Positions 57,375-63,656 of a stretch of 64,000 nucleotides of DNA are shown one piece after another. The stretch is from Caldilineales bacterium (GTDB lineage Bacteria > Chloroflexota > Anaerolineae > J102). The notes under the pieces were generated by a model. It was not told the DNA's origin. It did not search any database and saw only the letters and a list, made by a program, of their open reading frames with translations. The number at the start of each line of letters is the position of its first letter. Position 1 is the first letter of the stretch. Made by a program: the position numbers and the translations under genes. Where the stretch lies: assembly GCA_019695115.1 (NCBI GenBank), contig JAIBAP010000007.1, positions 48,793 through 112,792 on the forward strand, written 5' to 3'.

Positions 57375-59387
57375 TCAACGGCGCTGGTCCATCAGCCAAC
57401 GGCTGGAGTGGCGGCGCGAGGCAAGGGCCTGTTCGAGGTGTTTCAAGTCGCGAGTCTGTCGGGTCAATTGCCGATGAAGTTCGAGGTCGGCGCCGTCGCT
57501 GGCATGGAGCAGGATCTCCAGGTCGCGGCACCGTTCCCGGAGTCGCTGTCTTCGTAGTTGGAGGATGCTATCCAGCAAGTCCTTGCGGCGCTGCTCGTCG
57601 CGCACCGTCTCCAGACCGGCAATGGCCTGCTGCAAGGTGGCGGACGCCAGCTGGAGGCCGGGGGCTAGATGGTTCAGGCGTTCGACCAGGGGCAGGGTTG
57701 GCCCGGCAGCGGCGTCACTGTACAGGAATTCCTGCTGAGCGTCAAACATGGCGCGGTTGGGGGTTTCCTGAAAGTCCTCGGCGTTGATAGGGTCGAAACG
57801 CAGTTGGGCCAGTTCGTGGTCGGCCCAGGCCAACAGAGTGGGCTGGGCGAAGAGATGGGCCAGGATGTGCAGCTCCAGCCGGTTCAGAGGCTCTGAGGAG
57901 GCGGCGGTGGCAGGTCTTACGGGCGCGGGCGGCCTGGGGGCGGGGGCAAGGTTGTCGTCCGGCCACAGCGGCGGTTCTTCATCGGCGCCGCTGCTGGCGG
58001 GCGGGTGAGGTTCGGGCGCAGGGGGCTGCTGGCGCGGGCCGGCTTTGGCCCGCCCTTGCTGGCGCACGTAGTTCTCCAATTCGAGGTCGATCTCGCGTTC
58101 GTTGACGCCGACCAGACGCGCCAGCCGGCCGATATAGTGGCGGCGCTCGACCGGGTCGTCGATCTCGCTGATGCTGGGCGCCAGCTGGCGGACGAGCTGG
58201 ACTTTGCCCTGCGCCGTTTTCAGGTCGGCGGCGGCGGCGCTCTGCTCGAAGAGGAAGTCGAGCAAGGGGGTGGCGGCGGCGATGAGGTGTTGCCAGGCGG
58301 CGGGGTCGTGGCGGATGACGTCGTCGGGGTCCTGGCCGGGCGGCATGGCGGCGATCTTGATCACGGCGCCGAGGCGGGTTTCGTAGCGCAGGCCGCGGGC
58401 GGTGGGGACGGGGGCGGCGCTGGCCAGGGCCTCGCGCGCCACTTGCAGGCTGCGCAGGGTGGCGCTGGCCCCGGCGGCGTCGGCGTCGAGGGCAAAGACG
58501 AAGGTGCGCGTGTAGCGACTCAGGCGCTGCAGGTGTGGCGGGGTGATGGCGGTGCCCATGGCGGCGACGACGTTGTTGAAGCCGGCCTGGTGGGCGCTGA
58601 TCACGTCCATGTAGCCTTCGACGATGACGGCCTGATCCTGGGCGAGGAGGGCGCGGCGGGCCAGGTCGAGGGCGAAGATGACGCTGCCCTTGTCGAACAG
58701 CGGCGTCTGCGGCGAATTGAGGTATTTCGGCTCGCCCTGGTCGAGGATGCGGCCGCCAAAGCCGATCACGCGGCCCTGGGCATCGCGGATGGGGATCATC
58801 ACCCGGCCCCGGAAACGGTCGTAGTGGCCGCCACCATCGCGGCGCACCACCAAGCCGGCGGTTTCGAGTTCGGCGGCGGCGAAGTCGCGGCCGGCCAGGT
58901 AGTTCAGAAGCGCATCCCATCCCTGGGGGGCGTAGCCAAGCTGGAAGCTGGCGACCGTCTCGGCCAGGATGCCCCGGCGTTGGAGGTAGGCCTGCGCCGG
59001 TTCGCCGCCGGGGGTGTGCAGCAACTGGTGCTGGAAAAAGCCCGCGGCCAGGGTGTGGATCTCGCGCAGGCGGTTGAGTTTGCTGGCGGCTTCGGGGTCG
59101 CGGTCGCGGTCGAGATCGACGTGGGCGCGTTTGGCCAGCAGCTCCAGGGCGGTGCGGAAGTCAACGTTTTCTTTCTTCTCGACGAAACGGATGACATCGC
59201 CGCCGGTGCTGCAGGCGCCAAAACAACGCCACGTGCCTCTATCGGGGAAGACGTAGAACGAGGGCGTCTTTTCGGCATGAAATGGGCAAAGGGCCTTGTA
59301 GTTGCGGCCGGCTTTTTGCAGCGGGATGTAGCCGCCGATGACATCGACGATGTCGAGGCGGTCTTTGATTTCGTCGATGGCGGACAT
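57375..59387 (-). CDS. dnaG: DNA primase DnaG
   Basis: Zinc-binding [13 protein letters not shown]...WRCFGC, a TOPRIM domain ([16 protein letters not shown]) and a C-terminal helicase-interaction domain. It lies upstream of rpoD, in the classical dnaG-rpoD order. Confidence 0.95.
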
Positions 59388-59458
59388 CGAGGTTCCAGTT
59401 TAGCGTGGGGGGTGAAGTCCCTGAGATTGTTCCCAACTCTGATCGGGTGACGCGGAAA

Positions 59459-61057
59459 TCACGAAGAAACCGTGATCTGCGGGGTAGGCCATGACATCAG
59501 CAACCCTAATGCCTGCAAATTGCCTTGAATCGTGCGATGCTGTTCTTGCATCAGTCTCAGTAATTCATCTGCATCTCTGTCATCGTGTTGGGCTTTGAAG
59601 TGAGGGTTGACAGCCTTCAGATCGTAGTTGTTTTTTTCGATTTGCCCGCGAGTGATGGACCAGCTTCTGTCGCTATCTGCAAGACCTGGCATCAAATTGA
59701 AAAAACCAGCGAAATGTTCAGCAGTTAAAGGTTCTGTCTTACTGATCTTTATATCGGATAGGTCGTAGTACCAAATTTTCTCTGTCAGCTCTCCTTTGAT
59801 GAAAAACAGGATATCTGTCTTGATCGATGCTCCCGCGTTGACAAAAGTTCCTGACGGTAAACTGATAACACACCACAGGTTACACGTATCCAGGAGTTTT
59901 CGCTTTGTTTGTACAAAAGCTGTATCATTGGTTCGAAACAGAATGCCCTCATCGACGACGATTGCGCAGCGTCCTCCCGGAGCAAGGCTATCGATGACAT
60001 GCTGAAGGAAAAGCAACTGGGTAGAACTCGACTTGTAGGCGAATTGCGTTTGCGCCACCTTGCTTTCTTTGCCGCCAAAGGGGGGATTGGTCACGATCAC
60101 ATCGAAGCGCCTCGGTGCGTGTTCGAACAGCCCGCCGTAGATCTCGTTCCCGGTCAGTGTGTTGCCATGCCAAATATGCGGTTCATCGATGCCATGAAGG
60201 ACGAGGTTAGCGAGTGCGATGGGGTAGATCAGGTTTTCCTTCTCACGTCCGTAGAGATGACACGGTTGGATCGCTGAGTCGGGGGGCAGTTCGCCAACGG
60301 AATCTGCTTGTTTCTGCCTCACATGTTCATAGCATTGCACCAGAAAACCACCGGTGCCACAGCAAGGATCATAAATAGACTCGTCCGGTTGCGGATCGAT
60401 GGCCCTGACCATCGCCCGCACAACTTCGCGAGGGGTGAAGAATTGCCCACCGTCGTTGGACTTGTGCCCCATTTTTAATAACAAGCCTTCGTAGACTTGT
60501 GAGAGTGGGAAGATATGCGTTGGATCGATGCTGTCAGCGCGTATCTCCTGAACGCGATTCAGAACCTCGATCAGATTGTATTCGGTATCGATACGCGTCC
60601 GTTCGATATTTGCAGCGATTTCGCCGACGATCTTCTGGCGTGATGTCGCTTGGGGGTGCTGGCCGAGTCCCCTCAGGTATGGAAAAAGTTCATCATTGAC
60701 AAACGCCAGCAGAGAACCTTCACCCTTCGTTTCCAGCTCGCGGCGCTTCCATCCCTGCGGCTTATGGTTGTCTGGGTCGTGAAACAGTGATGGTTCATAG
60801 GGCGCGGCCCAGTCGTGCCAGCGATAGGGCGACTCGATGGAGTAATCAAAGACCCGTCCTGTTGCTTCGACTCTTTCTGCCTCGTTCGTTTCCTGCTCGT
60901 CAAGAATGCGCAAGAACAGGATCCAGGTAAGCTCAGGTATGTACTGCAAGGCGCCGGCGCAGTTCGAGCGTCGCAAAATATCGGTAATTCCTTTGATCGC
61001 TTTGTTCAAAGACTGCTGGGTGGGAAAGACCTTCCCGGATCTTTTAGTTGTCATCAT
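59459..61057 (-). CDS. HsdM-like N6-adenine DNA methyltransferase (gamma class)
   Basis: HsdM_N-like N-terminus, motif I DPCCGTGGFLV and motif IV NPPFGG. The gene lies in a ~47% GC island. Confidence 0.85.
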   Translation of the reverse strand: MMTTKRSGKVFPTQQSLNKAIKGITDILRRSNCAGALQYIPELTWILFLRILDEQETNEAERVEATGRVFDYSIESPYRWHDWAAPYEPSLFHDPDNHKPQGWKRRELETKGEGSLLAFVNDELFPYLRGLGQHPQATSRQKIVGEIAANIERTRIDTEYNLIEVLNRVQEIRADSIDPTHIFPLSQVYEGLLLKMGHKSNDGGQFFTPREVVRAMVRAIDPQPDESIYDPCCGTGGFLVQCYEHVRQKQADSVGELPPDSAIQPCHLYGREKENLIYPIALANLVLHGIDEPHIWHGNTLTGNEIYGGLFEHAPRRFDVIVTNPPFGGKESKVAQTQFAYKSSSTQLLFLQHVIDSLAPGGRCAIVVDEGILFRTNDTAFVQTKRKLLDTCNLWCVISLPSGTFVNAGASIKTDILFFIKGELTEKIWYYDLSDIKISKTEPLTAEHFAGFFNLMPGLADSDRSWSITRGQIEKNNYDLKAVNPHFKAQHDDRDADELLRLMQEQHRTIQGNLQALGLLMSWPTPQITVSS

Positions 61058-61062
61058 GTTGT

Positions 61063-61875
61063 CTATTTGTTCGAAGTTCGCTCTCTGGTGCGATTCGATA
61101 CAGCATCGACGAACTGGAGATACGCCTGAATATAAGCAGATAGTTCAAACAGATCCGTTTTTCGCGACTTATGAACGATCCGCAAGATTTTGCCAGCGTT
61201 ATGGGGATCAGGTGTGAGTTCGCCTGGGTGTTTCTTGCTCGGCACGAAAATGCCGGTTTCGTCTACTCTGCCGCCCCGTAGCGCCACGCTTGTATCACGT
61301 TCTTGGGCCAGCTCTACCGCGGGAATGACAACATACGAGAATATCTCCGGGTATTCGTATGGCGTGCCGTCGGCAAGTGCGTCGTTGCGCCACGCCCATC
61401 CTACCATGACCACCAGGTCTTCTTCGGCGTTGATCAGACTGCTCAGGACCTCGAAGCGCGCCGACTGTTCATCAGAGTCAGCATCGACGGCCTTCATCTC
61501 GATTTGAACTCGTTTTCCCAGTACGGCATCCCGAATGAAGAAATCCGGGTACTCATGGGCTACGGCAAAGGTCAGCCGCAAGTCGAAACCAAACGCCTCC
61601 AGAATCGAGTCATCCATGTATTTGCTGAGCGCATACTCCAGCATGGCGCCAATACGGGTGCGATAAGAGGATAACTGGCGTCTGCCCGTCGGCAATGGCT
61701 CGGTAGCCCGGTCGCGTTTGGCCAGTTGTCGCGGAGCAAAAAGGGAGTTGACCTGGTTGACTGCCTGTGGCATGAGCGCGTTGATGAAGATTGTGATCTC
61801 CTCGATCATGGCTTTCCCATTCGCGATCTTGTTGCCAATACTGAGTATTTCAGGATGAAGATTCATCATCTGCAA
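61063..61875 (-). CDS. Putative PD-(D/E)xK nuclease (candidate restriction endonuclease of the island R-M module)
   Basis: YPDFFIRD...VQIEMKAV fits a PD...ExK catalytic core. It sits between the hsdS-like and hsdM-like genes and overlaps hsdS by ~25 nt. I recognise no other homology. Confidence 0.4.
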   Translation of the reverse strand: MQMMNLHPEILSIGNKIANGKAMIEEITIFINALMPQAVNQVNSLFAPRQLAKRDRATEPLPTGRRQLSSYRTRIGAMLEYALSKYMDDSILEAFGFDLRLTFAVAHEYPDFFIRDAVLGKRVQIEMKAVDADSDEQSARFEVLSSLINAEEDLVVMVGWAWRNDALADGTPYEYPEIFSYVVIPAVELAQERDTSVALRGGRVDETGIFVPSKKHPGELTPDPHNAGKILRIVHKSRKTDLFELSAYIQAYLQFVDAVSNRTRERTSNK

Positions 61876-62485
61876 GTCGATTATCCTTTTCTGTGTCGGT
61901 GATTTTCAGTGGGAAAGGGAATTCTGAGAGAATTTTCTGTTCATAAGCATCAAGAAGATGCAATTGCCTCTGATAAGCAAGACTTGTCTCGATCACCAGA
62001 TTCATCCGGCGCGTCAATTCGTCGGCCAGGTGCTGTTGTTCTTGGATGGAGTCAGGAACAAGGACTTCTTGTGCAAGCACGTGTCGCATATTGGCGCGGG
62101 GCATCCGCGCCCCCGTCCGCTCTTGCATGGCCGCCTGGACGGTCTGTGGTCTTCGCAATATCCAGGCGAGGAAATCCTTTGAAACGCCTGGTCGCGGTAA
62201 GAGCGGCACAAGTTCGGTAGAGCAACGACCCGCGAAGTCAGGAACCGCGACCTTATTCAGATAGGGCCGCAGTTTGCAGTAGAGCACGTGGCGGGCGTCA
62301 AACAGAAATGCTGTCCCATGGCCGTGGTTGGAGGAGGTCAAGCCGTCGTACAGAATTCTGCCTGTAACGCTTTCGATATGCTCCAGACCCAGAAATGGTA
62401 GCTTAGCAGCCACCGGTGAATCCGGCGCTATGACCGTTCGGTTTTCGACGCACAAATCCCCGATGGCCTGCCATCGATATGCCAT
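61850..62485 (-). CDS. Type I R-M specificity subunit HsdS, single target-recognition domain (half-size)
   Basis: The TRD fold pattern (LGDLCVE...LPFLGLEHI...DARHVLYCKLRPYLNKVAV) and the conserved central region VPDSIQEQQHLADEL with a following coiled coil are typical of HsdS. Confidence 0.7.
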   Translation of the reverse strand: MAYRWQAIGDLCVENRTVIAPDSPVAAKLPFLGLEHIESVTGRILYDGLTSSNHGHGTAFLFDARHVLYCKLRPYLNKVAVPDFAGRCSTELVPLLPRPGVSKDFLAWILRRPQTVQAAMQERTGARMPRANMRHVLAQEVLVPDSIQEQQHLADELTRRMNLVIETSLAYQRQLHLLDAYEQKILSEFPFPLKITDTEKDNRLADDESSS

Positions 62486-62530
62486 TGCAGACTCCAGATG
62501 TCTGAAAATATCGCTCGAGGCAACGCTGGC

Positions 62531-62788
62531 CTAGGCCGCTTGCAGCGCGCCCTCAAAAGATCCCTGCAGAGCCTGGAGAATGACCTGTGGAAACTCAACC
62601 ACCAGGAAGTAATCGGCAGGGTAGAGATAATCTTCGCCGCTTTCATCGACGATGCGCAGATCGCCTTCCAGCCGCGCATCTTCATCGGGCACAATTCGAT
62701 ACAACTTGTGTAATTCCAGAGAAGCCGGATAATCCCAGTTGTTTACGCAAATCGCATACTTTTGTGTCGAATGCATTGCTTCTTTCAT
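62531..62788 (-). CDS. Hypothetical small protein (85 aa) at the 5' end of the low-GC island operon
   Basis: ATG at 62786-62788. Low-GC codon usage like the rest of the island. No recognised domain. Confidence 0.3.
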   Translation of the reverse strand: MKEAMHSTQKYAICVNNWDYPASLELHKLYRIVPDEDARLEGDLRIVDESGEDYLYPADYFLVVEFPQVILQALQGSFEGALQAA

Positions 62789-62918
62789 GACGGCAATCCA
62801 AATAGCACTTTCGCTTGAATTCTTTCGCGGTGCACTCGGTGATCTCGAAGCGCATGATGTCTCATTCTACCGCAAGCGGGGGGGATCAGCCAACGACTGC
62901 CGGCAGCCCGGCAGCCGC

Positions 62919-63656
62919 TCAGCGGCCGGCGACATCCTCGGCCAGCCAGGTAGTCATGCGGCCATCGGCCAGGGCCGGCAGCCACCGCTCGGCGGCCAGG
63001 TCGTAGCGGTGGAGGCCGCCCGGTTCGGGCAGCAGCAGGCGGCCAGCGATCAGGGCCAGGCTGAAGACGCCGGTCAATGGATGATCGAGGTCGCCGCCCA
63101 ACAGCCGCAGCACCCGGCCTGATTGAACATCGATTTCGGCGAGGCGATGATACCTGGGCGTGTAGAGGAAAAGGGCGTACAAACGGCGGCCGGCGGCGTC
63201 GAAAGCCAGGGCTTGGGGATGGCCCATCCCGCCCAGGTGGACATCGACAACGGCGACCGCAGAAAAATGACCCAGGTCAGAAATCGGGATGAGGCGCACC
63301 ACGTCGCCCCCGGCCAGGCCGACGGCCAGGAAATCGCCAGCGCGGGCGAGGGCGAAGGGGGCCGGGCCGACTGCTATCTGGCCGATGCGAGCGAGGCTGG
63401 CCGGGTCGAGGACGAGAAGGCGGTCGTTGGCGGCATCGGCCACGTAGACGGCCTGGCCCGTGACCGCCAGCCCGGCCAGCCGGCTTCTTTCGGGGGGCAG
63501 GGCGGCCCAGGCCGGCGCCGACTGCCCTGGGCCGAGCCGCCACACCTGGCCCAGGCTGGCATCGCTGCCAAAGAGGGCGCCATCCGGGCCAAAGGCCAGG
63601 CCGCCCGGCGCCGGGCCGATAGGCGCTGTGCTGATGGGCCGGCCGTCGGCGGCCAA
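62919..63656 (-). CDS. Beta-propeller repeat protein (YVTN/NHL-like), probably the C-terminal part of a larger secreted protein
   Basis: Repeated ...G.A(V/L)..DG..(L/Y)(V/A).. strands (LAFGPDGALFGSD; AVYVADAANDRLLVLD; RLYALF). An upstream out-of-frame ORF (63767..63994) encodes a poly-Pro/Thr linker that runs off the window. There may be a frameshift, or these may be two separate ORFs. Confidence 0.45.
   Translation of the reverse strand: MAADGRPISTAPIGPAPGGLAFGPDGALFGSDASLGQVWRLGPGQSAPAWAALPPERSRLAGLAVTGQAVYVADAANDRLLVLDPASLARIGQIAVGPAPFALARAGDFLAVGLAGGDVVRLIPISDLGHFSAVAVVDVHLGGMGHPQALAFDAAGRRLYALFLYTPRYHRLAEIDVQSGRVLRLLGGDLDHPLTGVFSLALIAGRLLLPEPGGLHRYDLAAERWLPALADGRMTTWLAEDVAGR

Follow-up and report, generated by a model that had tools for sequence, protein, structure and literature searches.

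What can a methyltransferase and a specificity subunit of Type I appearance be doing beside a small nuclease, with no HsdR subunit in sight? The question is raised by a 64,000-nt stretch of contig JAIBAP010000007.1 (hereafter the window, meaning the whole 64-kb stretch) from a Caldilineales bacterium, in which an island of about 3.5 kb and low GC content lies between dnaG and a gene for a propeller protein and carries four minus-strand open reading frames (ORFs) of 85, 211, 270 and 532 aa. An earlier note on this DNA, made from the sequence alone, had read the four, in that order, as an unknown, a single-domain HsdS, a protein with a PD-ExK core and a gamma-class HsdM-like methyltransferase, and had proposed that a horizontally acquired methyltransferase of M and S subunits is here teamed with a small stand-alone PD-(D/E)XK nuclease. 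That pairing is borne out by the domain, model, fold and motif evidence given below. We consider it probable that the island represents a self-contained cassette for Type II restriction-modification (R-M), of the kind known as Type IIH or Type 1½.

Gene Content of the Cassette

The largest of the island genes, hsdM-like and situated at 59459..61057 on the minus strand, encodes a 532-aa protein that matches the Pfam families N6_Mtase (2e-63) and HsdM_N (3e-10) and the PADLOC model MTase_I (4.5e-178). Motif I (DPCCGTGGF) comes before motif IV (NPPF) when read from the sequence, which is the gamma-class order, and the protein is 51-71% identical to the M protein of the same cassette in other hosts. 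On its domain matches and motif order it is a gamma-class HsdM-like N6-methyladenine (m6A) DNA methyltransferase, as the earlier note had it.

The hsdS-like gene (61850..62485, minus strand) encodes a 211-aa protein for which no Pfam or NCBIfam match was found. It does match 41 PADLOC specificity models (best Specificity_I, 1e-26), each alignment covering one half of a profile with two target-recognition domains (TRDs), and it aligns with residues 36-170 of a solved HsdS of 383 aa (PDB 7vru_C). Because the profile alignments and that to 7vru_C alike cover one half, the protein is, as judged from these alignments, a half-size S subunit consisting of the single TRD already claimed for it and a C-terminal helical region.

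Between these two genes, at 61063..61875 on the same strand, lies the gene for a putative Type II restriction endonuclease (REase) of the DrdI family, 270 aa long and here called R270. The coordinates bear out both the four ORF lengths and the tight packing reported before: the S and R ORFs share 26 nt, a figure that falls to 17-20 nt with the probable R270 start, an ATG at either 61869 or 61866; the R stop is separated from the M start by 5 nt; and a gap of 45 nt divides the 85-aa gene from S, where GGAG precedes the ATG. The absence of HsdR from the module also stands: neither in the island nor across the 64-kb window was one found by Pfam searches of all large ORFs or by tblastn with two HsdR proteins.

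The Nuclease and Its Relation to DrdI

R270 has a PD-(D/E)XK core composed of E80, P110-D111 and E126-M-K128. The YPDFF...IEMK stretch that had first suggested such a core is present, and in an alignment of 37 homologues reaching down to 41% identity E80, D111 (YPDF), E126-M-K128 (IEMK) and a subsequent D-x-x-S-x-E-Q are invariant. The fold is likewise that of a nuclease, namely the alpha-beta core of Type II REases with its E...PD...(D/E)XK residues. R270 matches the PADLOC Type II REase model PDLC03462 (REase_II) at 8e-22; no Pfam, NCBIfam or PDB sequence match was found, and only the REBASE-derived PADLOC models were informative for R270 and for S. Its homologues number 214, all of them unannotated. 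The EcoRV-like (beta-class) Type IIP enzymes SwaI, BglI, HincII, EcoRV and SfiI show no detectable sequence similarity to R270, and the Foldseek E-values are weak.

A closer relation emerged from a tblastn search of 72,556 plasmids with R270, in which the single match was a protein of 396 aa, annotated as hypothetical, from the pDrdI plasmid of Deinococcus wulumuqiensis NEB 479 (31% identity over 220 residues, E 5e-27), with EYAL, PD and ExK aligned. This strain is the source of DrdI (GACNNNN^NNGTC), and M.DrdI (GACN6GTC, m6A, Type II) is encoded on pDrdI (PMC6430315). The 396-aa protein fills PDLC03462 at 396/396 positions (943 bits) and is evidently, to go by that match, the founding sequence of the model; it is presumably R.DrdI itself. 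At a distance of 2.3 kb from it is encoded a 703-aa N-6 methylase with a C-terminal HsdS-like domain (a fused M~S protein), which shows 35% identity, across 667 residues, with the fused M~S methylases found beside distant R270 homologues. Residues 31-175 of the window's S align to residues 530-679 of this protein, its C-terminal specificity domain (29% identity, 2e-12).

Because the homology to the pDrdI protein, the match to the model and the strain and plasmid record for DrdI coincide, we take R270 to be a probable member of the DrdI REase family. The two systems share a homologous REase that falls under a common PADLOC model, together with a gamma-class m6A methylase with an HsdS-like TRD. 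They differ in that DrdI has M and S fused in one 703-aa chain and a REase of 396 aa, whereas the window has separate M and S genes and a REase of 270 aa. At 31% identity between the REases, the specificity of the window's enzyme need not be GAC N6 GTC.

The REase family also has outlying members in viruses. The cyanomyoviruses Synechococcus phage WH25-B (comparison locus L147, 122283-122984), QB2 and S-M1 carry a solitary, distant homologue (24% identical, E 2e-7) that is flanked by psbD and the gene for the major head protein, with no adjacent methylase.

Comparison with Known Restriction-Modification Systems

The earlier note had taken a separate S subunit to be foreign to Type II systems, and on this point it was mistaken, for AhdI, PshAI and BsaBI each have one. 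Their methyltransferases M.AhdI, M.PshAI and M.BsaBI go with Type IIP REases and have the composition "2 gamma-M + 2 [half-site]"; for the fused counterparts M.DrdI, M.XmnI and M.XcmI it is "2 gamma-M~[half-site]". The name "Type 1½", and later Type IIH, was given to the split form (PMC3874165, PMC4081073, PMC6158711). The suggestion of an uncommon or undescribed architecture therefore survives in its first half only: the architecture is uncommon, but it has already been described.

The cassette agrees with Type IIH in having a stand-alone REase, a gamma-class M and an S encoded by separate genes, and no HsdR within the window; as to the half-size S, the single TRD and the length of 211 aa are seen, while the 2M+2S assembly is a prediction. 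By architecture, it recalls AhdI (and likewise PshAI and BsaBI), with a separate Type IIP-like REase, a gamma-class M, a separate half-size S and no HsdR, and a target that would, by this likeness, be a palindromic bipartite site (PMC3874165, PMC4081073, PMC2878638). The arrangement of the genes is different, however. In AhdI an M-S unit and a C-R unit converge, and there is a controller protein (PMC2275141), whereas the window has one co-directional, overlapping S-R-M operon in which, unlike in AhdI, no helix-turn-helix (HTH) controller gene was found; the small HTH gene upstream of R that marks systems under C-protein control is missing.

Resemblances to Type I are also apparent. With Type IB (the EcoAI/FtnUII family) the cassette shares an HsdM-like M with an HsdM_N domain and an HsdS-like S, and three related cassettes lie directly downstream of an EcoAI-family hsdR. 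The window itself departs from Type IB in lacking HsdR, in having one TRD rather than two in S, and in the extra Type II REase gene between hsdS and hsdM. Nor is it a canonical Type I system, in which an HsdR (SF2 motor plus nuclease) is encoded along with hsdM and hsdS, and HsdS comprises two TRDs and two conserved helical regions; no HsdR accompanies hsdM and hsdS in the window, and S aligns to one TRD only.

Conservation of the Cassette in Other Hosts

Some 50 loci with R270 homologues were examined for their neighbours (comparison loci are given L-numbers), linkage being counted where the contig flank suffices. In every such locus with enough flank, a gamma-class methylase adjoins R. The clade that includes the window (clade A; R at least 59% identical) always has co-directional S-R-M genes and a split methylase, and its hosts are unrelated, comprising the chromosome of Phormidium sp. 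ETS-05, other cyanobacteria and several metagenomic lineages, in differing contexts. In the more distant members (clade B), and in the 58%-identical L145, R stands beside a fused M~S methylase of 680-790 aa, usually in convergent orientation. On a neighbour-joining tree the split-methylase clade is nested within the fused-methylase radiation.

The three proteins diverge in parallel, with identities for S, R and M of 71/82/71% in L007 and 45/63/57% in L001. Of 15 hosts compared, 14 have a cassette poorer in GC than the DNA on either side, which is what a mobile unit would be expected to show. In one cyanobacterial host (L142/L143:5179-9300), S-R-M stands beside an Mrr-like (Type IV) restriction gene and an 85-aa ORF unrelated to the 85-aa gene of the window, surroundings that suggest a small defence island.

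Predicted Mechanism and Target Site

On this evidence, the cassette can be given a provisional mode of action. S, R and M would be co-transcribed and translationally coupled. The half-size S is expected to dimerise and to bind two HsdM-like subunits, giving an M2S2 methyltransferase. Its target would be bipartite and palindromic (XYZ-N(4-6)-Z'Y'X'), with m6A placed in each half. A homodimer of R270, acting independently of M and S, would recognise the same site and, if it is active as predicted, cut within it when the site is unmethylated, requiring Mg2+ and no ATP. The S-R-M genes would move between hosts as one three-gene unit.

A search for the traces of such a site in the composition of the window gave observed against expected counts of 6 vs 17.5 for GAC N5 GTC, 12 vs 17.5 for GAC N6 GTC and 0 vs 11.1 for GGA N4 TCC, all three being no more than candidate sites. 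A 3-periodic pattern of depletion is also found in 768 kb of control Chloroflexota loci, so codon periodicity confounds the scan.

HsdR in Related Loci and Alternative Explanations

The cassette lineage is not devoid of HsdR. In L103 (1106-6852) and L105 (2617-7781), a complete HsdR of the EcoAI/FtnUII family (Type IB) is encoded immediately upstream of the half-size S, co-directional with it and overlapping or abutting it; the proteins match ResIII, SWI2_SNF2, Helicase_C, EcoEI_R_C and, weakly, HSDR_N, with NCBIfam matches of about 2e-130 and 6e-130. L102 has the C-terminus of an HsdR at its contig edge (1-1833), again upstream of S. The S, R270 and M of these three cassettes are homologous to those of the window, and hsdR-hsdS(half)-REase-hsdM operons thus come from three independent metagenomes; no description of this layout was found in the literature searched. 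A 233-aa C-terminal remnant of HsdR is encoded in L141 (3643-4344) beside integrase and Tn3-like transposase genes, and no HsdR remnant other than this one was found in the window or in the other cassettes without HsdR. A faint HSDR_N match in a 97-aa ORF of L007 was set aside for want of tblastn support.

These loci invite the reading that the window's system is Type I, or Type I and Type II at once, with its M2S2 methyltransferase also recruiting an HsdR encoded elsewhere in the genome and so protecting against two restriction activities. The complete HsdR genes beside half-size S in L103 and L105, and the partial one in L102, each in company with homologous S, R270 and M, speak for it. Set against them are the lack of any HsdR homologue in the island or window, the 12 distinct clade-A loci with adequate flank from which HsdR is likewise absent, and the truncation of the L141 HsdR beside integrase and transposase genes, which indicates loss; on balance we regard this reading as unlikely. 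That loss in the cassette's own lineage can be turned to another account, in which the island is a decayed Type I system, M and S persisting as an orphan (epigenetic) methyltransferase and R270 being a non-cognate accessory nuclease embedded in the locus, for instance one of abortive infection or repair. Type I loci often have accessory genes embedded in them, and R270 has no Pfam or NCBIfam annotation. The constant pairing of the R270 family with a gamma m6A methylase argues otherwise, as do the usually convergent fused M~S partners of clade B, which lack any Type I context and present a classic Type II layout, and the Type II REase fold and homology of R270 to the protein behind the REase model in the DrdI system. 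We judge this account very unlikely.

A further possibility accepts the partnership of the three proteins and denies R270 a DNA specificity of its own, supposing that it docks on M2S2 and leaves recognition to S, in the manner of a Type IIB enzyme or of a Type I nuclease module acting in trans. The sandwiching of the R gene between S and M, with translational coupling to both, would suit such docking, and so would the absence from R270 of the C-terminal region of about 160 aa present in the pDrdI protein. Its 270 aa are nevertheless the size of self-sufficient Type IIP enzymes (SwaI has 226 aa, EcoRV 241-245, HincII 240-258 and BglI 299), clade-B members of equal length are transcribed convergently to their methylase, and DrdI is a commercial Type IIP enzyme used on its own (PMC6430315). 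Docking of this kind is, to our minds, highly improbable.

The interpretation of the island as a Type IIH cassette is left the best supported, and several points weigh against it in their turn. The relatives with a linked HsdR (L102, L103 and L105), together with the remnant in L141, mean that the M+S pair may serve an HsdR, and an hsdR could still lie elsewhere in this genome, beyond the 64 kb. The bridge to DrdI runs through a protein whose identity with R.DrdI we infer, and some 160 C-terminal residues of that protein have no counterpart in R270. R precedes M in the operon and there is no controller protein, which leaves it unexplained how self-restriction is avoided in a new host. Finally, no depletion of bipartite palindromes in the 64 kb survives multiple testing, and no recognition site was derived from the scan.

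Acquisition and Maintenance of the Island

The host is a member of the Caldilineales (Chloroflexota); its 85-aa protein matches K1X65_04560, from a Caldilineales metagenome-assembled genome, with 100% identity, and the island locus recurs in many metagenomes. Comparison with 80 dnaG loci from other Chloroflexota genomes found an S or R270 homologue in none (0/80). In the closest genome (L009; DnaG 68% identical), the propeller homologue (49% identical) ends 30 nt before the dnaG start codon, and in five more relatives (L010, L025, L035, L049 and L062) a propeller homologue lies less than 400 nt upstream of dnaG. Since the propeller gene and dnaG are immediate neighbours in relatives, the island is a true insertion and was horizontally acquired. 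The empty sites thereby support the acquisition that the earlier note had proposed. The insertion point relative to L009 is not definable at nucleotide level, the intergenic DNA being too diverged. At one of the dnaG-rpoD loci compared, that of an Anaerolineales genome (L057:6497-6904), a 136-aa fragment 67-75% identical to the HsdR of L103 and L105 lies about 3 kb beyond rpoD, with no M, S or R homologue nearby.

When two strains of the species are compared, each of the four island genes has a dN/dS within 0.10-0.16 (0.15 for hsdM); dnaG has 0.13, and its dS is comparable to theirs. It follows that the island predates the split of the strains and has been maintained by selection. A 98%-identical strain shows a polymorphism at the junction of R and M (L004:3340-3500 vs window 61030-61090): the TAG stop of the REase gene is lost, the ORF continues for about 43 codons over the beginning of hsdM, in a frame other than that of M, and the N-terminus of M reads MNRIRRSVKVFP vs MMTTKRSGKVFP in the window.

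The composition of the island accords with a foreign origin in outline, although not in the figure first given for it. The drop in GC content next to dnaG is real, and 59440-62900 is the lowest-GC stretch of 3.46 kb in the window, but the value of about 47% in the earlier note was too low. The island as a whole measures 52.1%, compared with 63.1% for the window, 67.7% for the dnaG flank and 71.7% for the propeller flank, and 43-47% is reached only in some 300-nt sub-windows. At third codon positions, the island genes have 55-62% GC vs 79-84% in dnaG, rpoD and the propeller gene.

Boundaries and Neighbouring Genes

On one side, the island is flanked by dnaG (57375..59387, minus strand), which encodes the 670-aa primase; the identical gene in L089 matches the Pfam families Zn_ribbon_DnaG, Toprim and DnaB_bind. 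A spacer of 71 nt (59388..59458), from which GC content begins to fall, separates the dnaG start from the hsdM stop and holds the G-rich sequence GCGTGGGGGG at 59403-59412. On the other side, the upstream region of the four-gene cluster (62789..62918, minus strand) contains a second such sequence, GCGGGGGGG, at 62876-62884, and past 62900 the GC content is back up to about 70%. These G-rich sequences, proposed before as direct repeats flanking the island, do exist, but the second lies 8 nt from the coordinate given for it and the two differ by an indel. When direct and inverted repeats on the two sides of the island were searched for, nothing turned up but 10-20-mers at chance level. Both strands of the 64 kb together hold just five matches to the pattern GCG.?GGGGGG, and the placement of the pair at the flanks is suggestive, albeit picked out post hoc. 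The island holds no integrase or transposase gene.

A sigma-70-like site (TTGGCT-18-TAGAAT, 62893-62864, minus strand) coincides with the island boundary, ahead of the 85-aa gene, and its spacer includes the C-run that forms one of the supposed direct repeats; sigma-70-like matches in the region are not more numerous than in shuffled sequences. Beyond it lies the C-terminal part of the propeller gene (62919..63656, minus strand), which encodes a cell-surface CLIPPER-domain protein of about 1020 aa and runs off the end of the window. A full-length counterpart is present at L089:6808-9870, and a GC-rich hairpin with a 7-bp stem (CTGCCGG-GCTG-CCGGCAG) lies 3' of the gene's stop codon.

The remaining island gene (62531..62788, minus strand) encodes p85, an 85-aa protein with a predicted SH3-like barrel and a C-terminal helix. 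No Pfam, NCBIfam or HTH match was found for p85. Its family, spread over many phyla, counts more than 2655 proteins, lacks a Pfam model and has 22 invariant positions, including a D-E-S-G-E run at 48-52; members of this family occur in contexts without R-M genes. No p85 homologue was found beside any other R270 locus. We considered p85 as a controller (C) protein or a conserved fourth component and rejected both, given its SH3-like fold, the size of its family and the lack of linkage to the cassette elsewhere; p85 is a passenger gene within the island, unrelated to the R-M cassette.

Significance

Taken by itself, the island of the window is an ordinary, well-preserved R-M island of the AhdI/PshAI/BsaBI design, and the evolutionary lead lies in its HsdR-linked relatives. 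In those loci one M2S2 methylase may serve two nucleases, or they may be snapshots of the replacement of HsdR by a Type II enzyme. If the former is true, they represent a dual-restriction system in which one M2S2 licenses two mechanistically different nucleases, the HsdR driven by ATP and the Type IIP enzyme cutting at its site, an arrangement not found described in the literature searched. We also offer, tentatively, and as a possibility less probable than not, the proposal that S-R-M arose through the capture of a DrdI-like REase between the hsdS and hsdM of a Type IB system, with L102, L103 and L105 as living intermediates and the window as the end state after loss of HsdR; if true, this would be a natural series of transition from Type I to Type II. 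More immediately, about 200 public "hypothetical proteins" with no Pfam or NCBIfam model become nameable as DrdI-family Type II REases, and R270 may supply a new bipartite-site specificity from the Chloroflexota. The occurrence of one REase family with fused M~S, with split M+S and with split M+S plus HsdR provides a set of sequences on which the evolutionary link between Type I and Type II systems (PMC3874165, PMC6158711) can be tested.

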